A stretch of 64,000 nucleotides of DNA from Deltaproteobacteria bacterium (GTDB taxonomy: Bacteria; Desulfobacterota; Desulfomonilia; UBA1062). The stretch covers positions 40,576-104,575 of the forward strand of contig JAKPPU010000004.1 of NCBI GenBank assembly GCA_029547185.1, written 5' to 3'. This document shows positions 11,917-28,099 of the stretch, piece after piece (position 1 is the first letter of the stretch; each line of letters starts with the position of its first letter). Made by a program: the position numbers and the translations under genes. The notes below the pieces were generated by a model, which was not told the DNA's origin, ran no database searches, and saw nothing but the letters and a program-made list of their open reading frames with translations.

Positions 11917-14706
11917 TCACGCAAGCTGCTCGGCACAGCGGCTGCAGAGGTCGACAAATTCAGGATGCTTCCCGATATCCTCCCGGTAATGCCAGCACCT
12001 CGGACACTTGCCGCCGGCGGCCTTGGCCACCTCTATGCGCAGCTCGGGGAAGGCCTCGATTTTCCCGAGGTTCTCATCGCCTTGCGCCACTTCAACGCTC
12101 GAGCAGATAAAGATGTCCTCGAGCATGGGCTCTATCTGCCTCAAGAATTCGAGGGTGCCGCCTTTCGCATACAGGGTGACCTTCGCATCCAGGGGATGCC
12201 CGATCACCTTTTCCCTGCGCGCGATCTCCATTTCCTTCGAGACCTCCTGGCGAAGCAGCAGAATGCGCTCCCACTTGCCCGCGAGCTCGCTGTCCATGAA
12301 GGCAGGGTCCGCCGCCGGCATCGACGCGAGGTGCACGCTCTCTTCCTTGCCCAGGAAGACGGGCATGTAATCCCAGATCTCCTCGGAGGTGAACGCCAGA
12401 ATGGGGGCGATGAGCCTCGTGAGGTCCATGATGATCCTGAAGATCGCGCTCTGGGCAGACCGCCTCTCCAGGGAATCTCTCTTGTAGACGTAGAGCCTGT
12501 CCTTGAGGATGTCGAGGTAGAAGGCACTCATGTCCACGACGCAGAAGTTGTGGATCTGCTGGTAGATGACGTAGGGCTCGTACTCCTCGTACGCCCTGCG
12601 GACCTTCTCGATGAGCTTGTTCGTCACATGCAGCGCGTAGCGGTCGAGCTCCAGCATGCTCTCGTAGGGGACCATGTCCTTGTCCGGGTCGAAGTCGGAG
12701 AGGTTGCCCAGCATGAAGCGCGAGGTGTTCCTGATCCTGCGGTAGGTCTCCACGAGCCGGCTCACGATCTCGTCGGAGATCCTGATGTCGTTCTTGTAAT
12801 CCTGGGCGCTGGCCCAGAGCCTCAAGATCTCTGCCCCGTACTTCGAGATGATCTCCTGGGGCGCGATGGTGTTTCCCAGCGACTTGGACATCTTTCTGCC
12901 CTCGCCGTCCACGACGAATCCGTGGGTCAGGACGCTCTTGTAGGGGGCCCTGCCCCTCGTGCCCACCGAGGCGAGCAGGGTGCTGTGGAACCATCCGCGG
13001 TGCTGGTCGGACCCTTCGAGATACATGTCCACGGGAACGCCCAGCCTCGCGTCCTTTTCGCACACCGCCGCATAGCTCACACCGGAGTCGAACCAGACGT
13101 CGACGATGTCTTCCTGCTTGCTGAGCTCGCTTCCGGAGCAGGCCGGACATTTGGCCCCCTCGGGAAGGAGCTCGGCGGCAGACCTTGCGAACCAGGCGTC
13201 CGCTCCTTCGGTCTCGAAGATGTCCGCCACGTGGAACGCGATCTTCTCCGATGTCAGGATCTCGCCGCAGTTCTTGCAGATGAACACCGGGATGGGGACT
13301 CCCCATGCCCGCTGGCGGGATACGCACCAGTCAGGCCTGTTTTCGACCATCGAATAGATCCTGTCCCTCCCCCACGAGGGAATCCACTTCACCCGGTTGA
13401 TCTCTTCGAGGGCCTTCTCCCTTAAGCGGTTCTGCTCCATGGAGATGAACCACTGGCTCGTGGAGCGGAAGATGATGGCGCTCTTGCACCGCCAGCAGTA
13501 CGGGTAGGTATGCGCATACGTCTCGACGGAGAGCAGCGCCCCTTCCCTCTTGAGCGCCTTGTTGACGCCTTCGTTGGCGTCGAACACGAACTGGCCTGCG
13601 AACTCGGGGACCTCTTTCGTGAACCTGCCCTCGTTGTCCACCGGTGCATAGACGTCGAGCCCGTAGACCTTGCCGATCTCGTAGTCCTCTTCGCCGTGTC
13701 CGGGGGCGATGTGGACGCACCCCGATCCTGCATCGAGGGTGACGAAGGGTGCGAGGATGATGAGCGACTCGCGGTCGTAGAGCGGGTGCTTGGCCTTGAG
13801 GTGCTCCAGCAGGCTGCCTTTGAAGACGGCGAGGGTGCTGTAATCGCTCACGCCGATCTGCTTCATGACGTCGTCCACGAGGTCGGTGGCCATGACGAGC
13901 ACGCCGTATTCCTTCGTTTTCACTGCCGAGTACTCCAGGTCGGGGTGCAGGGCAATGGCCAGGTTCGCAGGGATGGTCCACGGCGTGGTCGTCCAGATGA
14001 CGACATACGTATCGTCCTTATAAGCTTTGAGCTCGGGCACCTTCTCGGAGATATCCGATATCATCTTGAAGCGCACGAAGATGGCCGGGGTGTTCTGATC
14101 GTGGTACTCGACCTCCGCCTCTGCCAGGGCCGTGCCGCACTTGGCGCACCAGTAGACCGGCTTGCGGGCCCGGTAGAGGGACCCTTGGCCGATGAACTTT
14201 CCGAGCTCACGGACGATGGTGGCCTCGTAGTCGTAATTCATGGTGACATAGGGCTCTTCCCACAGTCCGAACACGCCGAGGCGCTTGAATTCAGAGCGCT
14301 GGATGTCGAGATACCTGTTCGCATACTCCCTGCACTTCCTCCGTATCTCGACCTTGGACATCTCGGCGATCTTCCCGCCGAGTTCGATCTCGACCTGGTG
14401 CTCGATGGGCAGGCCGTGGCAATCCCAGCCCGGCCGATAGAACGTATCGTATCCCATCATGAAGAGTGATTTTATAATGATATCCTTCAATATCTTATTC
14501 AGGGCCGTGCCCAGGTGAATGTTGCCGTTGGCATAAGGCGGTCCGTCATGGAGAATGAACTTCTCCCTGCCCTTAGATCTCTCGATGATCCTCGCATAGA
14601 TGTCCCCATCCTCCCACCGCTTGAGCATTTCCGGCTCCTTGCTGACAAGGGATGCCTTCATGGGGAAGGCTGTCTGGGGCAGACACAGCGTATTCTTGTA
14701 ATCCAT
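11917..14706 (-). CDS. ileS: Isoleucine--tRNA ligase (type 1)
   Basis: LHDGPPYANGNIHLG, PGWDCHGLP, EGSDQHRGWF, KMSKS, C-terminal zinc finger CPRCW...CSRC. Confidence 0.99.
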   Translation of the reverse strand: MDYKNTLCLPQTAFPMKASLVSKEPEMLKRWEDGDIYARIIERSKGREKFILHDGPPYANGNIHLGTALNKILKDIIIKSLFMMGYDTFYRPGWDCHGLPIEHQVEIELGGKIAEMSKVEIRRKCREYANRYLDIQRSEFKRLGVFGLWEEPYVTMNYDYEATIVRELGKFIGQGSLYRARKPVYWCAKCGTALAEAEVEYHDQNTPAIFVRFKMISDISEKVPELKAYKDDTYVVIWTTTPWTIPANLAIALHPDLEYSAVKTKEYGVLVMATDLVDDVMKQIGVSDYSTLAVFKGSLLEHLKAKHPLYDRESLIILAPFVTLDAGSGCVHIAPGHGEEDYEIGKVYGLDVYAPVDNEGRFTKEVPEFAGQFVFDANEGVNKALKREGALLSVETYAHTYPYCWRCKSAIIFRSTSQWFISMEQNRLREKALEEINRVKWIPSWGRDRIYSMVENRPDWCVSRQRAWGVPIPVFICKNCGEILTSEKIAFHVADIFETEGADAWFARSAAELLPEGAKCPACSGSELSKQEDIVDVWFDSGVSYAAVCEKDARLGVPVDMYLEGSDQHRGWFHSTLLASVGTRGRAPYKSVLTHGFVVDGEGRKMSKSLGNTIAPQEIISKYGAEILRLWASAQDYKNDIRISDEIVSRLVETYRRIRNTSRFMLGNLSDFDPDKDMVPYESMLELDRYALHVTNKLIEKVRRAYEEYEPYVIYQQIHNFCVVDMSAFYLDILKDRLYVYKRDSLERRSAQSAIFRIIMDLTRLIAPILAFTSEEIWDYMPVFLGKEESVHLASMPAADPAFMDSELAGKWERILLLRQEVSKEMEIARREKVIGHPLDAKVTLYAKGGTLEFLRQIEPMLEDIFICSSVEVAQGDENLGKIEAFPELRIEVAKAAGGKCPRCWHYREDIGKHPEFVDLCSRCAEQLA

Positions 14707-14994
14707 CCTATCCTCCTTGTTGATTAACGGGTTACGAATCTATCCCATAGCGTGAAGGGTTGTCAATGCTTCGAGTGTCTTGAAGAGCCTTCCCACGGAG
14801 CGAATCGTGTGCACCTCACCACCCGGGTCTTTTCATGCTCCGGCACGGAAGGCATGACCGGTTTCATCGAACATGATGGACAGCAGGCGGATGCCTTTGA
14901 GCGAGCTATCAGGGGGACAGGATGCACATATCCATTATCCGGTTGCCGGGAAGCCCTCGTTCATGTATAATCTCCTTTAGGATCATCATCTTGG

Positions 14995-15864
14995 ATGTGC
15001 ACCTTGAGATGGAGAACGATCATTTCCTTTTTCTGCATCCTGGCCGGCATGATCGGCATGCCTTCGCAGGAGATATCTGCCGACGTTACGCTGAACGGAT
15101 ACGTCTTTTCGGATGACAGCACCGAGCTGTGGAAGAACCCGTATTTCAGCAATTTCAGCCGGGAGATCGATATCAGCGTCATCCTCTACGGATATGGCGA
15201 CTTCTCGGGCAGGGAATTCAAGCAGATGTGGTGGCAGGAATGGATCGTAGCGGGCATCCAGTGCATTTTATTCCGTGAGCAGGGTTACATCCCTTCCTAC
15301 AATGAAACGACCGCATCCTTCGACATGGAGGAGTACGACTCGGGCTCCCTCATCTATGCAAAAGATACTCAGGACAATATCCATGTCCTCAGCTACTCTG
15401 CAGCTCAAGCGCCCTGGGATTACTCGCTCCTCCCCGAAGGCGGCACCACCCTGAAGTACCCCGCCGATCCGGTCCCCGGGCAGCAGGTGTTCTGCGGTCG
15501 TGTCGAGGCAACCGGGGTGCAGATGGGCGAGATAGAAGACCTCGTAACCATTTCGTTCGACTCCCTCCCCCAGTATCCCTCGAAAACGCTCACTGAATAT
15601 CTGCGGCCCGGAGCAGGGGTGATCGCCGTTTCCTACAACTGGGAGGGGAGAATAAACGGATACTCGTTCGATGCAGTCCCGCCTGAATGGCAGGAAGAAG
15701 ACCAGAGCAAATGGGAAGAATGGAAGGATGATCACTGCTTCATCTCTACGTGTGCGCCGGGAACACCCTGCCGCGGGAGTATCTTGCAGAATTCCGTTCA
15801 TCGGGCCATCCGGATCGGAGAGGCTGCAAGAATCGCCTTGACTTCAATCATAAATAAATATTGA
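14995..15864 (+). CDS. Secreted hypothetical protein with a CFI-box-like C-terminal motif
   Basis: Signal peptide; acidic linker then DDHCFISTCA near the C-terminus. Confidence 0.6.
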   Translation: MCTLRWRTIISFFCILAGMIGMPSQEISADVTLNGYVFSDDSTELWKNPYFSNFSREIDISVILYGYGDFSGREFKQMWWQEWIVAGIQCILFREQGYIPSYNETTASFDMEEYDSGSLIYAKDTQDNIHVLSYSAAQAPWDYSLLPEGGTTLKYPADPVPGQQVFCGRVEATGVQMGEIEDLVTISFDSLPQYPSKTLTEYLRPGAGVIAVSYNWEGRINGYSFDAVPPEWQEEDQSKWEEWKDDHCFISTCAPGTPCRGSILQNSVHRAIRIGEAARIALTSIINKY

Positions 15865-15940
15865 AATAAGCTTTGATATGTTCGGCCGGCTGCCAGGTTA
15901 GGTTGGATGTATTCAATATCACATGCAAGGCAGGTGAGAG

Positions 15941-16396
15941 ATGATAGCATACCAGCTCACGGTACCAGTGGAAAACACACCGGGAAAGCTTGCCCAGGTC
16001 TCGGGAATCCTCACGAGAGAGAAGATCAATATCCGGGCCATCACCATATCCTCGTTCGGCGAGAAGGGCTTCCTCAATATCCTCGTCGACGATCCGAAGC
16101 TGGCTCAGAAGGCCCTTGCCAGAGAGGGTATACCGGTAGAGCTCAAGGCGATCATCGCCATCCTCATCGAAGACAAGCCCGGCGGAATGGACAAGCTCGT
16201 CCAGGTCCTCGCCGGAGAGGGCGTCAATGTCGAGAACGCCTACGGGTTCGTCCTCGAGAGCAGCAAGACCGCCGTCTTCGTCGTGGATGTATCCGACATC
16301 GAGAAGGCCCAGAAGGTCCTGAAAGAGCACAAGTTCAAGACGCTGAGTGCCGAGGCACTGGCCACCATAGAGCCGTTCCACTACATGAAATACTGA
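15941..16396 (+). CDS. Tandem ACT domain protein
   Basis: QLTVPVENTPGKLA...INIRA...IEDKPGGM...VNVENAYGF; paralog of 20013-20444. Confidence 0.9.
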   Translation: MIAYQLTVPVENTPGKLAQVSGILTREKINIRAITISSFGEKGFLNILVDDPKLAQKALAREGIPVELKAIIAILIEDKPGGMDKLVQVLAGEGVNVENAYGFVLESSKTAVFVVDVSDIEKAQKVLKEHKFKTLSAEALATIEPFHYMKY

Positions 16397-16535
16397 CGGC
16401 TCCTTTAGCGTCTCACCCGCTCGCTCCGGTTCATCTGTGAAGAATTCTCGGCCCGTTCAGGATTATTCCCGCTCGGGATATCCTCTCTTCCCCTGACCGC
16501 ACGCACCCAATGCACACTTCGTGACGATGCTGCCG

Positions 16536-17837
16536 CTACTTGACGAGGCTGGGCAGGAAGGTCGCGAGCTGCGGGAACGGGATGAGGAGGAAGGTCACGA
16601 GGACCATGGCGATGAGCAGAGGCAGGGCCCCTTTGAAGATGACGTGCAGAGGCACGTCCCTGGCAATCCCGCCCACCACGTAAACGTTCACTCCCACCGG
16701 CGGCGTGATGACGCCCATCTGGGTGACGAGCACGATGATGACCCCGAACCAGATGGGGTCGAACCCGTAGTGAAGCACCACCGGATAGAAGATAGGGATG
16801 GTGAGCATGATGAGTGCCAGCGAATCGATGAAGCATCCGCCGATGAGATAGATCACGACGATGAAGCTCATGATGGCCCAGGGCGGCATGTTGAACGAAG
16901 ATATCCAGCCCGCTATGTCATAGGGAATGCGCGATACCGCCAGGAAGTGTCCGAAGACGGTGGCGCCCGCCACGATCACCATGATCATGCAGGAGATCCT
17001 CGTGGTCTCCTCGAGGGCCTGTACGAAGCCTTTCCAGTCGATGTTGCGCTTGACGATTGCGACCACGAGCGTGGCGAATGCCCCCATGCCCCCGGCCTCG
17101 GTGGGGGTGAAGAGCCCTGCGAAGAGCCCTCCCATGACGAATACGAAGATGATGAGGATCTCCAGGGTTCCAGGCAGAGAGGCGATCCTTTCCTTCCAGG
17201 TGCTCTTCGGTCCCTTGGGGCCGAGCTCGGGTTTGAGCGTGACCCAGATGAGGATGGTGGCGATGAAGAAGATCGTCAGCACGATCCCCGGCAGAATGCC
17301 CGAGATGAAGAGCTTGCCGATGGACTGCTCGGTGAGGATGCCGTACACGATGAAGATGACGCTGGGCGGGATGAGGATGCCCAGACCCCCTCCTGCCGCC
17401 ACCACGCCGGTGGCCAGTTCGGGCTTGTAGTTGTAGCGCTTCATTTCGGGCAGGGTCGCAGCCGCCATGGTGGCTGCCGTGGCGTTCGTGGATCCGCAGA
17501 TGGCCGCAAAGGCCGCGCACGCACCGACGGTGGCAATGGCAAGACCGCCCGGCAGATGTCCGATGAACTTGTAGGCCGTATCGAAGAGCCGCGACGAGAT
17601 GCCTGCGTGGAAGGCGATCTGCCCCATGAGAACGAAGAGCGGAATCACGGTGAGGTTGTAGGAGTTAAAGACCGCAAAAACGTCCTTGGCCATGAGGCTC
17701 AAGGCCGAATCATAGGAGACGATCGTGCCGAACCCGATAAAGCCGATGAGGGCCATGACGAAGCCCACGGGCATCCTGCTGAAGAGCAGGACGACCAGTG
17801 CCAGAAGTCCGATGATGCCGATGGTTGTTGGACTCAT
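16536..17837 (-). CDS. TRAP transporter large permease (DctM family)
   Basis: IPLFVLMG, GGLAIA, GILIPPS, FTPTEAG, ITPPVG. Confidence 0.95.
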   Translation of the reverse strand: MSPTTIGIIGLLALVVLLFSRMPVGFVMALIGFIGFGTIVSYDSALSLMAKDVFAVFNSYNLTVIPLFVLMGQIAFHAGISSRLFDTAYKFIGHLPGGLAIATVGACAAFAAICGSTNATAATMAAATLPEMKRYNYKPELATGVVAAGGGLGILIPPSVIFIVYGILTEQSIGKLFISGILPGIVLTIFFIATILIWVTLKPELGPKGPKSTWKERIASLPGTLEILIIFVFVMGGLFAGLFTPTEAGGMGAFATLVVAIVKRNIDWKGFVQALEETTRISCMIMVIVAGATVFGHFLAVSRIPYDIAGWISSFNMPPWAIMSFIVVIYLIGGCFIDSLALIMLTIPIFYPVVLHYGFDPIWFGVIIVLVTQMGVITPPVGVNVYVVGGIARDVPLHVIFKGALPLLIAMVLVTFLLIPFPQLATFLPSLVK

Positions 17838-18328
17838 CCTATCTCAGCCCCCCTTAACTGACGCAGGAACTCGATGAGCAGGACTACGCAGAGCATGCCG
17901 CACCCGAGAGCGACGCCGTAGATGAACGGATACACCGGCATCTGGAGCGTGAGCGATACCTCGCCGGAGGCTTTCAGGCCATGTGCATAGACCACGCTCT
18001 GCCAGGTGATGATCCCGAACAGGAACGTTGACACGAGGGCGTTGATCGAGTACACGACCACCCTCACCATCCGGGGCATCTTCATCATGAGAATGTCGAC
18101 ATAGATGTGCCCGTTCTTGACCGAGGTGTACGGCAGCGCAAACGAGATGATCACGGCGCCCACGAACCCCACGATCTCATAGGTTCCCTTGATGGGGCTC
18201 CCGAAGAGACGCCCGACCACGTCCGCAACCGTGAGGAACATGATGAAGGCCACACCGGCCGCTGCCAGAAGGTTTACCTTTTCCGCAGCAGCGTCGACAA
18301 ACTTCTCTATACGCAAAAAAGAAATCAT
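17834..18328 (-). CDS. TRAP transporter small permease (DctQ family)
   Basis: Four TM segments, ADVVGR and GHIYVD motifs; overlaps the dctM-like gene by 4 nt. Confidence 0.92.
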   Translation of the reverse strand: MISFLRIEKFVDAAAEKVNLLAAAGVAFIMFLTVADVVGRLFGSPIKGTYEIVGFVGAVIISFALPYTSVKNGHIYVDILMMKMPRMVRVVVYSINALVSTFLFGIITWQSVVYAHGLKASGEVSLTLQMPVYPFIYGVALGCGMLCVVLLIEFLRQLRGAEIG

Positions 18329-18412
18329 GGGGGGTCCCCCTCGACATGCAGGGGAGGCCTCCGGTTTGTATCCGCCGGAGGCCTTCTCTGCAAATCAAAT
18401 TTTATGAAATCA

Positions 18413-19465
18413 TCACTTTCCGAACTTCGCGATCTTGTCCGCCAGCAGAGCAACGTACTTGTCGCCTTCGATGCCCTTTTCCTTCATGGCCTTGATGTAG
18501 CCGTCGATCACGGGCTTCACGGCAGCCTTCCATTTTTCAGCCTCTGCCGCGGGCAGGGCGACGACGGTGTTTCCGAGACCCTTGATGAAGGTCAGGCCTT
18601 CGGCATCCGCTTCATCCCAGGCCTTGCCCTGGACGTCTATGTACTCGCTGCTCACATCGGTGAAGACCTTCTTCACATCCTCGGGAAGCGCATCCCACTT
18701 CGCCATGTTCATGACCACGAACATGGCCGTGGTGTAGCCGACATTCGTGCAGTCGGTGGTGGCTTTCACGACCTCGCCCTGTTTCCAGCCCTTCATGGTC
18801 TCCATGGGGGCAAAGGTGCCTTCCACCACTCCCTTCTGGAGCGCCTCGTAGGTGCCGGGCTGCGGCATGGCCACGGGCACGCCGCCCAGGACCTCAACCA
18901 TCTTGGCGCTGAGTCCCGTGGAGCGGATCTTCATGCCCTTGAGATCCTTGAGCGTGCTCACCGGCTTCTTGGTATGCAGAAGGCCGGGACCGTGGGCATG
19001 GATGTAGAGCACGTGCACGTCGTCGAGCTCCGGGGGCTTCACCTCGTTGTAGAACTCGTTGGCGATCTTCGTCGCAGCCATGCCGTTTGGGTATCCGAGC
19101 GGCAGGTCTACCGCCTCCATGACCGGGAACCGTCCCCTGGTGTAGGCGAAGCAGGACATGCCGATGTCCGAGATCCCTTTCACGACGCCGTCATAGCAGT
19201 CATTGGCGCTCGTGAGCGTGCCGCCAGGGAACACGTTGATCTTCACTGCCCCGTTCGTCCGCTTTTCGATCTCTTTGGCCCATGCCTCACCGGCCTTGCA
19301 CTGGGCGTGGGTGGGCGGGAAGAAAATGCTGTACGTGAGCTCCACGGTCTTGGCCTTTGCCGCGCCTTCCGAGGATGCCGTTCCCTCTTCCGATTTCTTG
19401 CTGCAGGACACGCAGAGCATTGACGAGACCAGACAACAGATGAGACTGAATCCTAGCTTTTTCAT
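18413..19465 (-). CDS. TRAP transporter substrate-binding lipoprotein (DctP family)
   Basis: Lipobox CVSC; [31 protein letters not shown]. Confidence 0.93.
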
Positions 19466-19582
19466 GAATCCTCCTCTCCATCAACTTCCTTTTTCAATGA
19501 ATTTTTATATCTCACTTCCAAACCCGCTTATATTAACGGGAGCACGCTGTACTGTCCGTCTCCCGGTGAGACATCCTGTCTT

Positions 19583-20011
19583 TCATTCACCTCGATCCCC
19601 GGAGGCGGCCTTCGGCTCGAAATCCGCGTTGCAGTTGGGGCACTTGACGTTGTCTGCATACACGAGGCTGCCGCAGTCGGAGCATATCGATATCGTTCCT
19701 TCCTTCATGCCCGAGATGGCGCCCTTGAAAGGAAGGCCCGCTATCTTCTTGAGCAGGATGATGATCTCTGCGAGCGCATCGAAGAGGACATAGAGGGCGA
19801 CGCACGCGATGAGACCGGCGATTCCCAGGCCGATCCAGAGAAAGGAGGCGGTGAGGATGGTCACCACCACGCCCGCCAGGGAGCCGGCGATTCCCGCAAC
19901 GAGGAATATTCTGGCAACGACCGGCAGAGCGGCCTCCTTGCCTTGAGTATCCCTGAAAGGCTCGGTTACGATCCGGGCCATCTCCCTGCCCTGCGCAAGA
20001 TTCGAGTCCAT
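19583..20011 (-). CDS. Hypothetical membrane protein with a C-terminal zinc ribbon
   Basis: Two TM helices; CSDC...CPNC; starts 1 nt after the ACT gene stop. Confidence 0.65.
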   Translation of the reverse strand: MDSNLAQGREMARIVTEPFRDTQGKEAALPVVARIFLVAGIAGSLAGVVVTILTASFLWIGLGIAGLIACVALYVLFDALAEIIILLKKIAGLPFKGAISGMKEGTISICSDCGSLVYADNVKCPNCNADFEPKAASGDRGE

Positions 20012-20012
20012 G

Positions 20013-20444
20013 CTAGAGCCCGTAGACCTTCTCGCCGGGCAGCACCTTGAACCCGCCCTTCAGGAGCACGTCGATGGCGGAGTCGGTCGAATCGAAGCGG
20101 AAGATGATGACCGCGTTCTCGCCGCTGCGCTCGACGAAGGCGTACATGTACTCCACGTTGATCCCCTCCGCCGTGAGGGCCTCGAGGATGCTGTGGAGCC
20201 CGCCCGGCCTGTCCGGCACCTCGACCGCCACCACGTGGGTCTTGCCCACGGCGAACCCGGCCGCGTTCAGGACCTCCTTGGCCTTCGCGACGTTGTCGAC
20301 GATGAGCCTCAGGATTCCGAAGTCCGACGTATCGGCGAGCGAGAGCGCCCGGATGTTGATCTGTGCGTCCTTGATCGCCCTGGTGACACTCGAGAGACCG
20401 CCCGGCTTGTTCTCCAAAAAGATCGATATCTGTTCCACCTTCAT
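20013..20444 (-). CDS. Tandem ACT domain protein (paaK-associated)
   Basis: [13 protein letters not shown]...[21 protein letters not shown]...INVEYMYAF. Confidence 0.93.
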
Positions 20445-20454
20445 AACAGACCTC

Positions 20455-21756
20455 CTAGATATTCCTCTTGTCGACCACCCTCTGCGCCTTGCCCTCGAAC
20501 CGCTGGAGCTTCTTGGGCTCCACGAGCTTCACCTTTGCCGTGACCCCGAGATAGTCCTTGACGTCCTTCTTGATGCGCTTCTCGAGGTTCTGCAGCTCGC
20601 GGATCTCGTCCGAGAACACCTTTTCGCTCACCTCCACCTGGATCTCCAGGGTATCGAGCGAGCCTTCCCTGTCAACGATGAGCTGGTAGTGGGGCTCGAG
20701 CCCTTCGATGTCCATGATGACGCTCTCAATCTGGGAGGGGAACACGTTGACGCCCCTGATGATGAGCATGTCGTCACTCCTGCCGGAGATGCGCTCCATC
20801 CGCATGAAGGTCCTGCCGCACTTGCAGACCTCGGGCATGAGCCGGGTGATGTCCTTCGTACGGTACCTGATGAGGGGGAAGGCCTCCTTGGTGATGGTGG
20901 TGAACACGAGCTCGCCGGTCTCGCCGTAGGGCAGGACTTCGCCGGTTTTAGGATCGATGATCTCGGCGATGAAGTGGTCCTCGTAGATGTGCAGCCCGTT
21001 CCTGCCCTCGATGCACTCCATGGAGACGCCCGGGCCCATGACCTCGGAGAGGCCGTAGATGTTGAGCGCGGAGATGTCGAGCTCCTTCTCGATCTGGTCC
21101 CGCATCCTGTCGCTCCAGGGCTCTGCCCCGAGGATGCCGACCCTCAGTCTCAGGGACTTCATGTCCACACCCATCTCCCTGCCCGCCTCGGCCAGGAAGA
21201 GCAGGTACGACGGCGTGCAGCAGATGGCCGTGGGGCCGAAGTCCTGCAGGAGCAGGATCTGCTTCTTCGTGGAGCCGCCGGACATGGGGATGACGCTCGC
21301 GCCCAGTTTCTCTGCCCCGTAGTGGGCGCCCAGGCCGCCGGTGAAGAGCCCGTAGCCGTAGGAGTTGTGGATCACGTCGTTCTTCGTGAGGCCGGCCGCG
21401 GCAAAGGACCGGGCCATGAGGGTCGCCCAGGTGTCGATGTCGCGCTTCGTGTAGCCCACCACCGTGGGCTTGCCCGTGGTGCCCGACGAGGCGTGAAGCC
21501 GCACGATGTTGCTCATGGGCACGCTGAACAGCCCGAACGGATAGTTGTCCCGAAGGTCCTGCTTGACGGTGAAGGGGAGCTTCTTCAGGTCGTCGAGGCT
21601 CTGTACGTCGTCCGGGGTCACGCCGGCGCTGTCGAATGCCTTCCGGTAGAACCCGACCGTATGGTACACCCTGCTCACCACCTGCTGGAGCCTCTTCAAT
21701 TGCAGGGCCTCGATCGCCTCCCGGGGCAGCGTTTCGAATTCTTCGTTATAGATCAT
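20455..21756 (-). CDS. paaK: Phenylacetate--CoA ligase family protein
   Basis: [49 protein letters not shown]; start MIYNEEF at 21756 after GGAGG. Confidence 0.95.
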
Positions 21757-21782
21757 GGACCAACCTCCCTTTCTTTCTGCGT

Positions 21783-22343
21783 TTATGCCTGTCTTCCCCT
21801 TTTGAAGCCCTCGATGTTCGCCGCCCTGATCTTTTCCTTGAGCATGTCGTTCATGGTGAGGGTCCAGAGCGCCTCGTCGGCCTCGAGATAGGTCGAGAGC
21901 TTTCCCAGCAGGATGATGTTGACGCCCTTGGGGTTGCCCATCTCGTCCGCTATCCTGCTGCCGTCCACGATCACGATCCTGTCGGTCTTTTCCCGGAGGA
22001 TGGGCAGGACGTCCGGATAGGGCTCCTTGCCCGAGATCACCGAGGGCGGGGAGAGCCGGTAGCGGTTGATGATCACGACCGCGTCCTTTTTCAGGTACTG
22101 AACATAGCGGGCCGCTTCGAGCTCCTCGAAGGAGAGAAGAATGTCGCACTCTCCCAGGGGAATGAGGGGCGAAGCCACATGCTTCGCATACCGCACGTGC
22201 GACATCACGCTGCCGCCGCGCTGGGCCATGCCGTGGATCTCGGACTTCTTCACGTCGAACCCCGCCCTCATCATCACGTCCGCGAGCATGTCCGATGCGA
22301 GGATGATTCCCTGGCCGCCTACACCTGTCATGAGCACGTTCAT
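21783..22343 (-). CDS. iorB: Indolepyruvate (arylpyruvate):ferredoxin oxidoreductase beta subunit
   Basis: [24 protein letters not shown]; ATGA overlap with iorA. Confidence 0.93.
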
Positions 22344-24070
22344 TTGCCACCTCCGATCGCGTCCCGGGCGCAGGGCTCTTCGCACACGCCGCAGCCGGCG
22401 CACGAGCTGTTGATGAAGGATTTTTCATCCCTGAACTCGATGGCAGGGCACCCGAGCCCGATGCACACCTTGCAGCCGTTGCACTTCTCGGGATCGACAT
22501 GCAGGGGTTTTCCGGTCACCTTCCTCGATTTCAGGAGAACGCACGGCGCCTTCGATATGATGACCGAAGGGCCTTCGAAGGCCAGCGCCTCCTTGATGGT
22601 CTTGCGCGTCTTCTTGACGTCGTAGGGATCGACCGTCTTCACCCATTCGATGCCTAAGGCCTTCACGAGCTTTTCGAGATCGAGGCTGATCGTGGCCTCG
22701 CCCCGGATGGTGATGCCCGTCCCGGGGTGGTTCTGGGAGCCGGTCATGGCTGTCGTGGAGTTGTCGAGAATCACGACAAGGGCAGCGCCCTTGTTGTAGG
22801 CGAGGTTCGTGAGCCCGGTGATGCCCGAGTGATAGAAGGTCGAGTCCCCGATGACTGCGGCGATCTTCTCCTTCCCGGCCCCGAAGACCGTTGCCATGCC
22901 GTGGGCGTGGTTGATGCCCGCCCCCATGCACAGGCAGGTGTCGATGGCATCGAGCGGTGGGAGGAAGCCCAGCGTGTAGCAGCCGATGTCTCCCGCGATG
23001 AAGGCCTTATTGCGCCGGAGCGCCCAGAGGAGGCTTCTATGCGGGCAGCCCGGGCACATGCTGGGCGGTCTGCCGGGAAGCGGGGGCTTCACGAAGGGCG
23101 CAGGCGCGACGCCCGATATGGTGCTTTTGATGATGTCCGGGTTCAGCTCGCCGCACAGGGGAAGCCTGTCCTTGCCGTGGCAGTCGATACCTAGGGCCTT
23201 GATCTGGTCTTCCATGAAGGGATCGAGCTCCTCGACCACCCAGAGCTCGTCGACTTGCCCTGCGAACTCACGGATGAGCCTGTCGGGCATGGGATACGGC
23301 ATGCCCAGCTTCAGGAACGACGCCCCGGGGAAGGCCTCTTTCGCATACTGGTAGGCCACGCCCGAAGAGACGATCCCGAGCTTCCGGTCTCCCGTCTCGA
23401 TGACATTGAGCGGGGATGTGTTCGAATACTCTTTCAGCTCGACCATGCGCCTTTCGATGACGGGATGGCGGACCCTGGCATTGGCGGGCAGCATCACCCA
23501 TTCCGCCGGGTGCCTCTCGACGGAGGGCCTCGGAGGCTCCTTCACCTCCCCCATCTCCACGATGCCCATCGAATGGGAGATCCTCGTGGTGGTGCGGAGC
23601 ATGACCGGCGTCCCGAACTTCTCGCTTATCGAGATCGCCTCGATCATGAAGTCCTTTGCCTCCTGGGAGGTCGTAGGCTCCAGCATGGGGATCTTGGCAA
23701 AGCGTGCGTAATGCCGGTTGTCCTGCTCGTTCTGCGAGGAGAAGAGCTCGGGGTCGTCGGCGCTCACCAGGACGAGCCCTCCCCTGATGAGGGTATAGGG
23801 CAGGGTCATGAGAGGGTCTGCAGCCACGTTTACGCCCACGTGCTTCATGACGGCCATGGCGCGCGCCCCGGCATAGGATGCGCCGGCAGCCACCTCGAGG
23901 GCCACCTTCTCATTGGGTGTCCACTCGGCATGGATGCCCGGATACTCGGCAGCGATGTCTTCGAGCACCTCTGTCGACGGTGTGCCGGGGTATGCGGAGG
24001 CAAATGCCACGCCTGCCTCGTACGCCCCCCGGGCGATCGCCTCGTTTCCGCTCAAAATCTTCTTCATCAC
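22340..24070 (-). CDS. iorA: Indolepyruvate (arylpyruvate):ferredoxin oxidoreductase alpha subunit
   Basis: [46 protein letters not shown] (TPP binding), C-terminal 2x[4Fe-4S] motifs. Confidence 0.96.
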
Positions 24071-24208
24071 GTATTCCCCTTGACCATGATAAAATGTGCA
24101 TTCCGGGCTTGCTGAGCCCTGACCGTGCCGTTTCTTTGCCGCCCCACGGTATCACACGTTCGGTGCCTTGTCAGTCCCGGATGTGAATGCCCGGAAAGCC
24201 CCGGCATA

Positions 24209-24243
24209 ATAAAAAAGGCCATGGATTTCGTCCATGGCCTTTT
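24209..24243 (-). terminator. Attenuator terminator (segments 3:4)
   Basis: RNA AAAAGGCCAUGGA-CGAAA-UCCAUGGCCUUUUUUAU; about 140 nt upstream of the iorA start and oriented with the operon. Confidence 0.88.
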
Positions 24244-24266
24244 CCCATCCGGTGAGAGCCCCAGGC

Positions 24267-24338
24267 CTATGGACATAAGCTCATGCGATAATAAAAATAA
24301 AAGTAATAGGCCTTGGTGTCGACTCTTTCTGTCATCAT
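24267..24338 (-). CDS. Tyr/Phe-rich attenuation leader peptide MMTERVDTKAYYFYFYYRMSLCP
   Basis: Manual translation: seven consecutive Tyr/Phe codons (TAT TAC TTT TAT TTT TAT TAT), TAG stop 24 nt before the terminator, alternative pairings present. Confidence 0.85.
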   Translation of the reverse strand: MMTERVDTKAYYFYFYYRMSLCP

Positions 24339-24349
24339 AACGGTTTCCT

Positions 24350-24378
24350 ATATTCTATAGAAGTTCTTGCAGTGTCAA
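24350..24378 (-). promoter_or_regulatory. Sigma70-type promoter of the ior leader
   Basis: TTGACA (24378-24373), then TAGAAT at 15-nt spacing or GAATAT at 17-nt spacing, just upstream of the leader ATG. Confidence 0.55.
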
Positions 24379-24684
24379 GACAATTTCTGGCACCCTTCAA
24401 AGACGGTGTCTGCTGATGGCGCCCGCGGTGCGGCTTTTTAAAGAAAATCATATCGTTGCATGGCGCGGACGAGGCCGCACATCAGCCCGGCGGTGAGGAT
24501 CACCATCTAAAAACCAAGGTGCTGCCTCTCTTAAAATGCCGTAGCGAATGATGCTGCCGGCATATTACAGCAGCTGCCGATGATCATTATAAATTATGCC
24601 TGAATCCTTTTTGCCGGATAATGCATCTTGACATTGACTGACCAGTTCCGATACCTTGCCAAATTCGAAGAGATGGTAGTTGAT

Positions 24685-25767
24685 ATGGATCATACAGAGG
24701 CATGGGTTACTCTGGATCTCATCTCCTGTATCGGGCCCAAGAGTGCACAGAGACTCCTCGAGATTTTTAAAACCCCCGAGAACATCCTCTCTGCCCCGAT
24801 ATCGAAGATCAAGGAGACGGGTTTCCTCAATGCGGCTCAGCTCAAGAGCCTGGCCGGCGGACCGGACAGAGAGGCGGTGGAGAAGGCATTCACCGCGCTC
24901 AAGGCGCACGGTGCCCGTGCCGTGGGGTTCGACGATCCGTCCTACCCGGAGGTCTTGAAGCAGATCGAAGACCCTCCCCTTGTGCTGTACGTCAAGGGAT
25001 CTCTTGCAGACCTCGAGCCTGCGGTCGCCATCGTGGGCACGCGCGCACCTTCCCATTACGGCAGGGAAACGGCCTTTTCCCTGGCCCGCGACCTGAGCGC
25101 AAAAGGCGTCACGGTCGTATCGGGGCTGGCCAGAGGGATCGACACGGCTGCCCATGAGGGGGCGCTCGAAGGCATGGCAAGCACGGTCGCGGTCCTGGGC
25201 TCCGGCATCGACGTGATCTACCCGCCGGAAAACGCAGGCCTCGCAGAGAAGATCGCGCACAGAGGGGCAGTGATAAGCGAGAATCCGCCCGGCACGTTTC
25301 CCGACCCGGGAAACTTCCCCAGGCGCAACCGGATCATTTCCGCTCTGTCCTCAGGGGTCGTGGTGGTCGAGGCGGCGTATCGGTCCGGTGCGCTCATCAC
25401 CTCGCGGCTTGCCATGGAGCAGGGCAAAACCGTGATGGCCGTGCCCGGCCAAATCACGAACGTGAGGTCGCAGGGGCCGCACCACCTGATCCGTCAGGGC
25501 GCTGCGCTCGTACGGGACGCCGATGACGTGCTCATGGAGATCGCACCTCAGGTAAAGAGAGCCATCGGGATAACCGAAACACTCCTGCAGCCGTCCGACG
25601 AGATCGTCGAGCTCACCGGGGGCGATGCACTGAGCATCGAGGATATCGCCCGCGAGCTGGGCCTCGACGTCGTGGAGGCGGCAAAGAGGGTGAGCATGCT
25701 CGAGCTTGCGGGGAAGATCGTGAGGATAGAGGGCAACAGATTCACAGCAAGGAGTACGAATGAGTAA
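24685..25767 (+). CDS. dprA: DNA processing/protecting protein DprA (Smf)
   Basis: DPPLVLYVKG, VAIVGTR, VVSGLARGID, FPRRNRIIS, SGALIT; upstream of topA. Confidence 0.95.
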   Translation: MDHTEAWVTLDLISCIGPKSAQRLLEIFKTPENILSAPISKIKETGFLNAAQLKSLAGGPDREAVEKAFTALKAHGARAVGFDDPSYPEVLKQIEDPPLVLYVKGSLADLEPAVAIVGTRAPSHYGRETAFSLARDLSAKGVTVVSGLARGIDTAAHEGALEGMASTVAVLGSGIDVIYPPENAGLAEKIAHRGAVISENPPGTFPDPGNFPRRNRIISALSSGVVVVEAAYRSGALITSRLAMEQGKTVMAVPGQITNVRSQGPHHLIRQGAALVRDADDVLMEIAPQVKRAIGITETLLQPSDEIVELTGGDALSIEDIARELGLDVVEAAKRVSMLELAGKIVRIEGNRFTARSTNE

Positions 25768-28099
25768 ATCACTCGTGATCGTGGAGTCTCCCACGAAGGC
25801 GAAAACCATCAAGCGCTACCTCGGGAAGGAGTTCGAGGTTCAGGCCACCATGGGCCATATCAAGGACCTTCCCAAGAGTGTGCTCGGAGTGGATATCGAC
25901 AAGGGGTTTGCGCCCAACTACAAGGTGAAGCCCGAAAAAAAGGATATCGTGAAGAAGCTGCGCAAGCTCGCGGAAGACGCCGAGCGCATCTACCTGGCCT
26001 CGGACCCTGACAGGGAGGGCGAGGCCATTGCCTGGCACATCGCCGAGGAGCTCTCGAAGCAGAACTCGGAAGTGGGCAGGATCATCTTCCACGAGATCAC
26101 CAAGAAGGCCATCGACCAGGCCATCAAGCAGCCGCAGCCCTTGAACAGGTCGCTCTACGACGCCCAGAAGGCACGGCGGGTCATGGACCGGATCGTGGGA
26201 TACACCATGAGCCCTCTCCTGTGGAAAAGGGTAAAGCGGGGGCTCTCCGGCGGCCGGGTCCAGTCGGTGGCGGTGCGGCTCATCTGCATGCGCCAGGAAG
26301 AGATCGAGAGTTTCGTGCCCCAGGAATACTGGACCATCGACGTATCGCTCATAGCCCCTTCGGGAGAAGAGTTCACGGCCAAGGTCGTTGTCCCGAAGGA
26401 GATCCCGGACGAGCAGGCCTCGCACGAGGCTGCACGGATGATCAGGGAGGCGACGAAGATCGTCGTCGAGAAGGTGAAGAAGCAGGTGAGGCAGAAGGGC
26501 CCCCTTCCGCCCTTCATCACCTCGACGCTCCAGCAGGCCGCATCGTCGCGGCTGCGCTTTTCTGCCAAGAAGACCATGATGGTCGCCCAGCAGCTCTACG
26601 AGGGCATCTCTCTCGGCAAGAACGAGGTTGCCGGTCTGATCACGTATATGAGGACCGACTCCCCGACCGTGTCGGGCGAAGCCATCGGCCAGGCGAGGTC
26701 TTACATTCCCGCCGCCTTCGGCCAAGACTACCTCCCGGACAAGCCCCGTCAGTATAAGGCCAAAAAGACGGCCCAGCAGGCCCATGAGGCGATCCGCCCC
26801 ACCGACGTCCGCAACGATCCCGAGTCGATGAAGCCATATCTGACGAAAGAGCAGTATGCGATCTACGAGCTCATCTGGAGGCGCTTCGTCTCGTCCCAGA
26901 TGGCGAACGCCGTGTTCGACCAGACCTCGATCGACATCTCCGCGGGAAAGGTGGGACTAAGGGCGACCGGCTCCATCATGCGGTTCGAAGGGTTCCTCAG
27001 GGTCTACGGCCAGCAGGACGAGAACGACGTCCTCCTGCCCGAGGGCATCTCCGAAGGCGATACTTTGAACCTGAAGGACATCTGCGAGAAGCAGCACTTC
27101 ACCCAGCCGCCTCCCCGCTACACCGAGGCGAGCCTCATCAAGGAGCTCGAAGAGCGGGGAATCGGAAGGCCGAGCACCTATGCCCCCATCATCTCCACGA
27201 TCCAGGAACGCGGGTACGTGAGGATGGAGCAGCGCGCATTCGTGCCCACCGAGCTCGGCAGGGACGTGAACGATCTGCTCGTGAAGCACTACCCCAACAT
27301 CCTCGATATCGGGTTCACGGCAAAGATGGAGGATTCCCTCGACGAGATCGAGGACGGCAAGACGAACTACCTCGAGATGATGAGCTCCTTCTACAGCACC
27401 TACAAGCAGGAGCACGACCAGGCCGCCACCGACATGCAGAACCTGCGGGCAGCCCACAGGCCGTCGGGCATAACCTGCGACGTGTGCGGAGGCGAGATGC
27501 TTATAAAGCTGGGCAAAAACGGCTATTTCCTCGGCTGCTCGCGCTATCCGGAGTGCACGAACACCCGGGAGTTCAACCGGGATGAAAACGGCAGGATCCA
27601 TTCCGTAGAGCCTGCCGTGCCCGAGCAGACCGACGCCGTATGCGACAAGTGCGGCTCGCCCATGGTCGTCAAGAAGGGAAAGTTCGGGCCTTTCCTCGCC
27701 TGCAGCGCGTATCCCGCCTGCTCCAACACGAAGCCGGTCACGAAAACCGAGCCCACGGACAAGGTATGCGAAAAATGCGGCTCGGCCATGGTGGTGAGGC
27801 AGGGCAGGTTCGGTCCCTTCCTCGCCTGCAGCAGCTACCCGAAGTGCAAGAACATCCAGCCCTACCCCCTCGGGCTCAAGTGCCCCATACCCGGATGCTC
27901 GGGAGAGATAAGACAGCAGAGGTCCCGGAAGGGCAAGATGTACTACTCGTGCTCGAACAAGGAGTGCAAATTCATCTCCTGGTCGAAGCCCGTCCAGAAG
28001 CCGTGCCCGTCGTGCAATGCCGGGTTCCTCATAAAGAAGGGAAAGGCCAGCGTGTGCCCGAATCCGGACTGCGGCTACCATGAAGAAGAGAGCGCTTAA
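25760..28099 (+). CDS. topA: DNA topoisomerase I
   Basis: LVIVESPTKAKTI, ASDPDREGEAI, GRVQS, ITYMRTD, GIGRPSTYA, C-terminal zinc ribbons. Confidence 0.99.
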   Translation: MSKSLVIVESPTKAKTIKRYLGKEFEVQATMGHIKDLPKSVLGVDIDKGFAPNYKVKPEKKDIVKKLRKLAEDAERIYLASDPDREGEAIAWHIAEELSKQNSEVGRIIFHEITKKAIDQAIKQPQPLNRSLYDAQKARRVMDRIVGYTMSPLLWKRVKRGLSGGRVQSVAVRLICMRQEEIESFVPQEYWTIDVSLIAPSGEEFTAKVVVPKEIPDEQASHEAARMIREATKIVVEKVKKQVRQKGPLPPFITSTLQQAASSRLRFSAKKTMMVAQQLYEGISLGKNEVAGLITYMRTDSPTVSGEAIGQARSYIPAAFGQDYLPDKPRQYKAKKTAQQAHEAIRPTDVRNDPESMKPYLTKEQYAIYELIWRRFVSSQMANAVFDQTSIDISAGKVGLRATGSIMRFEGFLRVYGQQDENDVLLPEGISEGDTLNLKDICEKQHFTQPPPRYTEASLIKELEERGIGRPSTYAPIISTIQERGYVRMEQRAFVPTELGRDVNDLLVKHYPNILDIGFTAKMEDSLDEIEDGKTNYLEMMSSFYSTYKQEHDQAATDMQNLRAAHRPSGITCDVCGGEMLIKLGKNGYFLGCSRYPECTNTREFNRDENGRIHSVEPAVPEQTDAVCDKCGSPMVVKKGKFGPFLACSAYPACSNTKPVTKTEPTDKVCEKCGSAMVVRQGRFGPFLACSSYPKCKNIQPYPLGLKCPIPGCSGEIRQQRSRKGKMYYSCSNKECKFISWSKPVQKPCPSCNAGFLIKKGKASVCPNPDCGYHEEESA

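Follow-up and report, generated by a model that had tools for sequence, protein, structure and literature searches.

A candidate arylacetate salvage operon for phenylalanine and tyrosine behind a predicted leader-peptide attenuator in a member of the Desulfobacterota

The ior-paaK-ACT locus and its leader

Analysis of a 64-kb window (the whole stretch of 64,000 nucleotides studied here, from contig JAKPPU010000004.1 of the Deltaproteobacteria bacterium assembly GCA_029547185.1) centered on a run of genes in which a short leader open reading frame (ORF) precedes iorA, iorB, paaK, a stand-alone ACT-domain gene (ACT1), a gene for a zinc-ribbon membrane protein, and dctP, dctQ, and dctM of a tripartite ATP-independent periplasmic (TRAP) transporter; a second ACT gene (ACT2) converges on the run from its far end. 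An earlier note on this DNA had described this arrangement, and all of it is present, with iorA to dctM on the minus strand throughout. Our combined results suggest that the operon probably serves to salvage arylacetates for the synthesis of phenylalanine (Phe) and tyrosine (Tyr) and that it is gated by a ribosome-mediated attenuator. The basis of this reading is the gene content, the conservation of leader, terminator, and antiterminator, the parallel with a tryptophan (Trp) paralog and with the regulation of biosynthetic genes, and the clade to which the transporter's binding protein belongs.

The leader (24267..24338, minus strand) would encode the peptide MMTERVDTKAYYFYFYYRMSLCP, whose 23 codons include seven consecutive Tyr and Phe codons (YYFYFYY) and no Trp codon. 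An intrinsic terminator lies downstream at about 24207..24243 on the same strand and consists of GGCCAUGGA, CGAAA, and UCCAUGGCC followed by U6AUUAU; the core of its stem is GGCCATGGA-CGAAA-TCCATGGCC with a U6 tail, and the hairpin has a folding energy of -15.4 kcal/mol. An antiterminator is predicted at 24229..24275 (minus strand), formed by the stop-codon region UGUCCAUAGGCCU (24275..24263) and the terminator's 5' arm (24240..24229). Upstream from the leader, a promoter-like site was picked out by eye at 24350..24378 (minus strand), with TTGACA at 24378..24373 followed by TAGAAT after 15 nucleotides (nt) or GAATAT after 17 nt. Both this site and the leader terminator were absent from a consensus promoter and terminator scan, which allowed spacers of 16 to 18 nt only and returned nine terminator-like matches where 6.5 were expected, i.e., the background level.

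The leader region folds more stably than 200 of 200 shuffled versions (z = -3.7). Such leaders are rare in the genome: a six-frame scan of its 4.19 Mb found only seven short ORFs with at least six Phe or Tyr in eight residues, of which five are internal to long ORFs and lack a terminator. The two that lie outside long ORFs and are followed by a terminator are the ior leader itself and one upstream from a gene for 3-deoxy-D-arabino-heptulosonate 7-phosphate (DAHP) synthase. Rfam covariance models run against window positions 14000..26000 at E <= 1 gave no relevant match, only a spurious long noncoding RNA; judged from its sequence, the ior leader appears to behave like amino-acid leaders yet to belong to no described Rfam leader family. 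By its anatomy, it is predicted to be a classical ribosome-mediated transcription attenuator; in our model of the antiterminator, a ribosome occupies the last aromatic codon and the terminator is deprived of its 3' arm.

The first gene behind the leader, iorA (22340..24070, minus strand), encodes the 576-amino-acid (aa) alpha subunit of an indolepyruvate/arylpyruvate:ferredoxin oxidoreductase (IOR). The protein matches the equivalog model TIGR03336 over residues 2 to 572 with 739.9 bits (cutoff, 650.9), as well as POR_N, TPP_enzyme_C, and, weakly, Fer4. The ATG of iorB (21783..22343, minus strand) at 22343 overlaps the iorA stop codon as ATGA, and the 186-aa beta subunit read from it matches the Pfam family POR (PF01558) with 124 bits against 27.4. 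Next come paaK (20455..21750, minus strand), encoding a 431-aa member of the AMP-forming phenylacetate-coenzyme A (CoA) ligase family with matches to TIGR02155, AMP-binding, and AMP-binding_C_2, and ACT1 (20013..20444, minus strand), encoding a 143-aa pair of ACT domains (PF19571, 98 bits). The zinc-ribbon gene (19583..20011, minus strand) encodes 142 aa with two predicted hydrophobic transmembrane helices and a C-terminal CxxC...CxxC motif.

Contigs from RNA-library run X18, at 99% identity or more, bridge the junctions of the zinc-ribbon gene with dctP and with ACT1, of ACT1 with paaK, of paaK with iorB, and of iorB with iorA; RNA-library contigs cannot prove a single transcript, carry-over of DNA is possible, and they are weak evidence. 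Contigs of runs X15 and X18, which come from one study, stop at 24173 and 24171, respectively, about 100 nt upstream from the start of iorA, and their ends lie between the terminator and iorA, short of terminator and leader. These ends might reflect processing, a second start, or a break in the assembly, and they say nothing reliable on transcript start or attenuation. The contigs of X19 and X20 cover short pieces only.

Conservation of the leader and related leaders in the family

Orthologs of iorA occur in 39 of the 41 relatives' genomes searched (the source genome counted), and our leader survey took in 20 loci from the same family (f1) and another 16 from a sister family (f2). A leader rich in Phe and Tyr codons was found at the same position upstream from iorA in 18 of the 20 f1 loci, one of these leaders being cut by a contig end with its stop region and terminator present. 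The peptides themselves diverge widely (for example, MLPNTLELLGFYFFIFRGMKVRP versus MQTRALTKFYFYFCFFRPGRCP); what is kept is an aromatic run 4 to 8 codons ahead of the stop, a CCCAUAGGCC motif across the stop codon, a terminator 22 to 28 nt beyond it, and a terminator 5' arm (GGCCAUGGG) complementary to the stop-codon segment. Terminator hairpins with U-run tails (-14.6 to -21 kcal/mol) are found in 18/18 leaders, and every one of them is predicted to fold with its stop-codon segment paired to that 5' arm, involving all or all but one of the arm bases in 16; the other two pair 7 of 9 (L012) and 5 of 10 (L018). A single Trp codon occurs in just one of the 18 leaders (L015). Behind the leader, ACT1 follows paaK in all 16 f1 loci that reach that far.

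The source genome holds a paralogous operon, iorA2-iorB2-paaK2, on contig C73, whose proteins are 39 to 44% identical to those of the window and which has no ACT gene. Its genes (L099:833-4496) are preceded by a leader (L099:677-727; G000:C73:64376-64426) that ends in SRCPWWRSIFE and is followed by a terminator. Leaders with WW, WWW, or WWWW and a terminator lie upstream from the iorA2 orthologs in 11 of 12 f1 loci; among eight f2 loci, one WW ORF was seen, and it lacks a terminator. The function of iorA2-iorB2-paaK2 is likely the salvage of indoleacetate to Trp.

Aromatic-codon leaders are also found on biosynthetic genes. A DAHP synthase gene (L098:777-1796; G000:C52) follows a leader at L098:593-667, MTNRNAYRYFGFYFWYGKGEPPVG, and its terminator. 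This leader is present in 19 of 21 orthologous f1 loci, with Phe and Tyr codons in 19/19 and Trp codons in 18/19 (not in L109), and the peptides always end in PPVG or a similar motif; of four paralogous DAHP synthase loci, none has it. The two leaderless orthologous loci belong to a genus that includes one of the two genomes without an ior leader. As in a classical trp attenuator, the leader of trpE (G000:C74:13292-13384) contains WWW and is followed by a strong terminator that runs to about 13446 and ends 20 nt before the trpE start (trpE from 13470). Upstream from pheA, no aromatic leader was found. The f1 lineage, then, places aromatic-codon attenuators on DAHP synthase, mostly with codons for all three amino acids, and on trpE, with Trp codons.

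The transporter block and the ACT proteins

The TRAP genes form a complete adjacent set on the minus strand: dctP (18413..19465), for the solute-binding protein (PF03480, 169 bits), dctQ (17834..18328), for the small membrane subunit (PF04290, 85 bits), and dctM (16536..17837), for the large permease (PF06808, 332 bits; TIGR00786, 338.6 bits against 268.45), the last two overlapping. The best sequence matches of DctP in the PDB are 4n6d, 4pgn/4pgp, 4nap, 5i5p, 7nr2, and 7nqg (E = 1e-56 to 1e-37), while every other TRAP binding protein scores at E >= 1e-24. Among these best matches are Desulfovibrio proteins (4n6d, 4pgn/4pgp, and 4nap), marine "aromatic acid" binders, and TarP proteins. We take 4pgn and 4pgp to hold indole pyruvate and indole acetate. 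For the AlphaFold model of DctP (predicted local distance difference test [pLDDT] score, 75.8), the best 15 structural matches have Z scores of 30.9 to 32.6 over 304 to 308 residues at a root-mean-square deviation of 2.7 to 3.2 and 28 to 32% identity. By title, 11 of these 15 are binders of aromatic acids, and the other four titles are cut or name no ligand; four carry the words "specific for aromatic acid ligands" in their titles, and TarP_Rhp in complex with 4-hydroxyphenylacetate is also in the set. DctP thus appears, by sequence and predicted fold, to belong to a TarP-like aromatic-acid clade. The TarP-type proteins that it resembles most (7nqg, 7nsw, 7ntd, 7nr2, and 5i7i, and 4n6d, 4nap, and 4pgn of Desulfovibrio) are alike over some 305 residues, and one was solved with 4-hydroxyphenylacetate; identity, however, is just about 30%, and the likeness is one of overall sequence and fold. 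Because the closest matches in both comparisons are aromatic-acid binders, the ligand of DctP is likely an aryl carboxylate, though which one cannot be read from the sequence. A review lists "indole acids" among TRAP ligands (PMC5812351).

Beyond dctM lies ACT2 (15941..16396, plus strand), convergent with it and encoding a 151-aa ACT pair (PF19571, 70 bits) that is 33% identical to ACT1. The zinc-ribbon gene, dctPQM, and ACT2 behave as a block in f1, present at eight loci (and in part at one more), absent from six, and not assessable at five. ACT2 was found in 8/8 relatives' loci with the complete TRAP block and in no locus without it, and the zinc-ribbon gene is syntenic between ACT1 and dctP in relatives. 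The variability of the block suggests an accessory module on a core of leader, iorAB, paaK, and ACT1.

This variability is one argument for an alternative that we consider unlikely although it deserves real weight, namely, that attenuator control is confined to iorAB-paaK-ACT1, or to these genes and the zinc-ribbon gene, and that dctPQM and ACT2 are a separately transcribed, later module that imports another aromatic carboxylate (e.g., arylpyruvates, indole acids, or hydroxycinnamates) and has a loose connection, or none, with Phe and Tyr synthesis. At the six f1 loci without the block next to ACT1, ileS directly follows ACT1 in two. In relatives, dctP is preceded by a gap of 100 to 540 nt, and a conserved promoter-like element (TTGATT, 16 nt, TAAAAT) lies in the long gaps (about 300 to 540 nt) of L004, L005, L006, and L011 and is not evident in the gap of the window, and the solved relatives of DctP bind varied aromatic acids. 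The absence of the block from some loci and the promoter-like element in relatives' gaps leave attenuator control of the transporter unproven. Against a separate unit, the gap between the zinc-ribbon gene and dctP in the window is just 117 nt and holds no significant terminator-like fold (z = -1.1), and the RNA-library contigs described above span it; gene order and strand are kept in four genera; and TarP-like TRAP genes neighbor ior or paaK genes in three or more other families, each with its own gene order. No second aromatic leader was found between the zinc-ribbon gene and dctP, and the gap between dctM and ACT2 has no significant terminator-like fold either (z = 0.08). DctP homologs (E <= 1e-70) occur in 72 of 201 genomes of a phylum sample (200 further genomes plus the source genome), in which iorA of the ior1 type occurs in 93; in the stretch fetched around iorA at 40 phylum loci, a TarP-like dctP was found at none.

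One of the other families has two importers beside a single ior-paaK-ACT core: at L131:1697-16192, iorAB, a further gene, paaK, and ACT1 are followed by a five-gene Liv-type ATP-binding cassette transporter, a second paaK, and dctPQM.

The role of the ACT proteins is approached through their relatives and neighbors. The closest solved chain to ACT1 is 2f06, a "conserved hypothetical protein" (E = 7.7e-41) with no assigned function, and at greater distance ACT1 matches the regulatory ACT portions of acetohydroxyacid synthase (E ~1e-4) and of aspartokinase. ACT1 and the ACT small subunit of acetohydroxyacid synthase both adjoin a thiamine-diphosphate enzyme of amino-acid synthesis, which, together with the weak profile match, suggests an analogous feedback-sensing role, although ACT1, unlike that subunit, is a stand-alone PF19571 pair. 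A third ACT-pair gene in the source genome directly follows the gamma subunit gene of another 2-oxoacid:ferredoxin oxidoreductase (L100:1370-8904; G000:C192), where the oxidoreductase alpha, beta, and gamma genes and the ACT pair precede pgk, tpi, and a third paaK paralog. The ACT pairs may thus have the oxidoreductase, not the ligase, as their partner, and association with anabolic oxidoreductases could be a general feature of such proteins. Cofolding of PaaK with ACT1 gave a score of 0.33, against 0.00 for the best of three controls, with three runs agreeing in at least 95% of contacts and a partner pLDDT of at least 84. This lends weak support to that pairing: in calibration, 58 of 80 solved complexes passed, as did 2 of 110 mismatched pairs, and scores of 0.60 or less came from only 7 of the 80 solved complexes and both passing mismatches. 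Because we used our own alignments, these counts apply only approximately. Feedback sensing by the ACT proteins is at this point a hypothesis.

The zinc-ribbon protein matches no Pfam or NCBIfam family. Only 14 homologs were found (62 to 99% identical), and its Atlas matches, with scores below 0.9, indicate generic zinc-ribbon clusters. The cluster is flanked by ileS on one side and by a divergent dprA-topA pair on the other. Between ileS and ACT2 lies a gene (14995..15864, plus strand) for a 289-aa protein with a hydrophobic N terminus and no Pfam or NCBIfam family. It is found in 7 of the 8 relatives' loci with a full TRAP block (43 to 50% identity); L003 has no match, and the contig of L013 ends 223 bases past ACT2, leaving no room for the gene. 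Its membership in the salvage system is uncertain.

Direction of the pathway and its implications

We read both ior operons as biosynthetic mainly because the same device, with matching codons, sits on DAHP synthase and trpE; since these two genes are biosynthetic by family assignment, the shared leader supports an anabolic reading of the ior operon. The earlier note had argued from attenuation under starvation to an anabolic role, and the family-wide attenuator and the aromatic leaders on DAHP synthase and trpE strengthen that argument. Its view that, with no Trp codon in the leader, indoleacetate is not the regulated target is upheld by the existence of a second iorAB-paaK operon under a Trp-only leader. 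It had also placed the aminotransferase of the pathway outside the cluster, and a candidate for this last step was indeed located in the pheA operon (L128:3592-8464; G000:C136:23591-28463), which lies on the same contig about 12 to 17 kb before the start of the window and comprises pheA (CM-PDT-ACT), a class I/II aminotransferase gene, tyrA, aroA, and cmk. The possibility that the genome lacks pheA or tyrA did not hold, since both are there, and compensation for their loss was rejected as an explanation of the operon. The de novo route is present, with two members of the PF00793 family (the DAHP synthase under leader control among them), chorismate synthase, pheA, tyrA, and aroA, so that salvage would supplement it and not rescue an auxotrophy.

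The proposed mechanism is as follows. When charged tRNA-Phe and tRNA-Tyr are ample, the ribosome would cross YYFYFYY to the UAG codon and cover CCAUAGGCC, the terminator would form, and transcription would stop before iorA; when Phe or Tyr is short, the ribosome would stall in the run, the stop-codon segment would pair with the 5' arm of the terminator, and the operon would be transcribed. The TarP-like TRAP transporter may then import phenylacetate, 4-hydroxyphenylacetate, or close aryl acids, which PaaK would convert to arylacetyl-CoA, with ATP going to AMP. With reduced ferredoxin and CO2, IorAB would carry out the reductive carboxylation of arylacetyl-CoA to phenylpyruvate and 4-hydroxyphenylpyruvate, from which an aminotransferase encoded elsewhere, perhaps that of the pheA-tyrA operon, would yield Phe and Tyr. 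An ACT-pair protein might detect the amino acid formed and hold PaaK or IOR in check. Carboxylation of phenylacetate to Phe is known from rumen bacteria.

Several further observations join those on the transporter block in weighing against this interpretation. The chemistry of 2-oxoacid:ferredoxin oxidoreductases such as IOR is reversible, and the direction therefore rests solely on regulatory logic. On paper, the full de novo route makes salvage dispensable. Some family assignments are marginal: IorB scores just under the cutoff of its best equivalog model (NF005322; 234.8 bits against 237), PaaK passes that of TIGR02155 narrowly (648.6 bits against 646.3), and the preference of PaaK for phenylacetate or 4-hydroxyphenylacetate is not something that its sequence reveals. 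The leader is missing from two f1 loci in two genera (L016 and L020). Outside f1, no leader with a terminator was found in 56 loci (the 16 of f2 and the 40 of the phylum sample), four of which hold a small ORF with 4 or 5 aromatic residues in 7, the terminator being unchecked there. The 40 phylum loci, from about 30 families, keep iorAB-paaK-ACT1 in 22 cases, without the family leader; a compact leader of the f1 type was seen in none of the 40, although L072 holds an aromatic-rich 43-aa ORF that received no closer look.

The same parts can serve degradation, and a catabolic role has to be considered, in which the TRAP transporter imports phenylacetate, phenylpyruvate, or Phe, and the phenylacetyl-CoA formed by PaaK and by IorAB enters anaerobic degradation or fermentation; such a role has been proposed for Desulfococcus multivorans and Desulfobacula toluolica. 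Standard annotation names PaaK a degradation enzyme. In a further family (f26; L130:3866-14375 and L129:3988-11597), dctPQM genes whose products are 58 to 61% identical to those of the window are followed by genes for a 3-hydroxyacyl-CoA dehydrogenase, IorAB, a PaaK-like ligase, and a flavin adenine dinucleotide oxidase with a CCG domain; from its gene content, this cluster looks catabolic and resembles the published D. multivorans clusters, which adds to the points against salvage. The study of D. multivorans and D. toluolica (PMC5109826) describes clusters for phenylacetate and phenylpyruvate that share with ours, in a deltaproteobacterium, the combination of TRAP DctPQM, an aryl-acid CoA ligase, and IorAB; the D. 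multivorans TRAP/CoA ligase/ior sets are induced by phenylacetate and phenylpyruvate. The clusters of both species carry dehydrogenase, hydratase, and thiolase genes and respond to aromatic substrates, whereas the gene list of our window and its Pfam matches include no hydratase, dehydrogenase, or thiolase gene within the cluster, which has instead an ACT pair and an attenuator of the starvation type.

We regard the catabolic role as quite improbable. A Phe/Tyr leader with a terminator lets genes be expressed when charged tRNA runs short, which is the wrong signal for degrading Phe and Tyr, and DAHP synthase and trpE are under the same device in the source genome. The ligase is of the AMP-forming PaaK type, which spends ATP in activating acids and yields none, whereas the model for fermentative IOR, as given in PMC5817080, has ADP-forming synthetases for ATP gain. 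The lack of downstream phenylacetyl-CoA catabolism that the earlier note had envisaged agrees with the marker searches, made on a draft genome that is 96% complete with 5.3% contamination, which weakens every absence. The best genome match to BamA/Oah (TIGR03200) has 63 bits against a cutoff of 464, and that to the BcrB subunit of benzoyl-CoA reductase (TIGR02260) has 171 bits against 487, with both models passing in 0 of 14 control genomes, so that their sensitivity is undemonstrated; PaaA (TIGR02156), for which 3 of the 14 controls pass the cutoff, has no match. TRAP, ior, and paaK genes serve catabolism elsewhere, and what sets f1 apart is the attenuator and the lack of downstream degradation genes. 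Least probable of all is a reversible buffer, induced by Phe/Tyr shortage and concerned mainly with an arylpyruvate/arylacetyl-CoA interconversion set by redox, for example, to supply arylacetyl-CoA or arylacetate for another product: the reversibility of IOR and the presence of the de novo route would suit it, but the window's gene list and Pfam matches hold no consumer of arylacetyl-CoA in or near the cluster, and the F/Y versus W specificity of the leaders matches the carboxylation products and not a shared by-product.

Salvage for amino-acid synthesis has a precedent in Methanococcus maripaludis, which draws on aryl acids and IOR to make aromatic amino acids (Porat et al. 2004, cited in PMC4162585). 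The two systems are alike in an IorAB-type enzyme that works in the synthetic direction, from aryl acids to aromatic amino acids, beside a de novo pathway. The operon described here, in contrast, is bacterial and known from its genes alone; it adds a PaaK-type ligase, an ACT pair, and, in some genera, a TRAP importer, and it has a leader-peptide attenuator and two paralogous modules with different regulatory codons. With the pheL-pheA and trpL-trpE attenuators of the Proteobacteria, as PMC3082878 and PMC1183508 present them, the leader has in common a short ORF with tandem codons, an intrinsic terminator, and an antiterminator that overlaps the end of the ORF; the genes controlled, however, are iorAB-paaK-ACT and not those for a shikimate or prephenate enzyme, and Tyr and Phe codons are mixed. 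The enzymes, the class of transporter, and the reductive route are thus already known; new are the attenuator on ior and paaK genes, the pair of F/Y- and W-specific modules, and the linked importer. In the literature searched, from which subscription journals were mostly absent, we came across no account of ior or paaK genes under the control of a leader peptide.

The stretch, whole or in part, was found in 20 of 24 listed public runs from 15 studies. Most are metagenomes of sludge, wastewater, and bioreactors, and some are from soil; four of the 20 could be the source sample itself, and only about a tenth of the stretch is present in two RNA runs. This habitat is consistent with a supply of arylacetates from amino-acid fermentation. 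A broader proposal, which we put forward tentatively as somewhat less than an even prospect, is an "aromatic attenuon" in f1: two IOR-PaaK salvage synthases, one making Phe and Tyr from phenylacetate and 4-hydroxyphenylacetate and the other making Trp from indoleacetate, would each be gated by a leader alongside DAHP synthase and trpE, with ACT pairs as product sensors.

Genes for IorAB and PaaK are almost always annotated as functions of aromatic degradation or fermentation, and the direction of IOR in bacteria is hard to infer from sequence. The regulatory codons (F/Y versus W) match the products of reductive carboxylation and so point to the direction of IOR, and an aromatic-codon leader could serve as a sequence-level marker for anabolic IOR systems. 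The attenuator would also add a new class of genes to the short list of operons under classical attenuation. The salvage reading also implies that arylacetates are cross-fed as precursors of amino acids in digesters and sediments. If the broader attenuon proposal is correct, the iorAB-paaK-ACT cassette that is ubiquitous in anaerobes and routinely annotated as degradation would be largely biosynthetic, and the waste of aromatic fermentation would be a traded amino-acid precursor in anaerobic communities.

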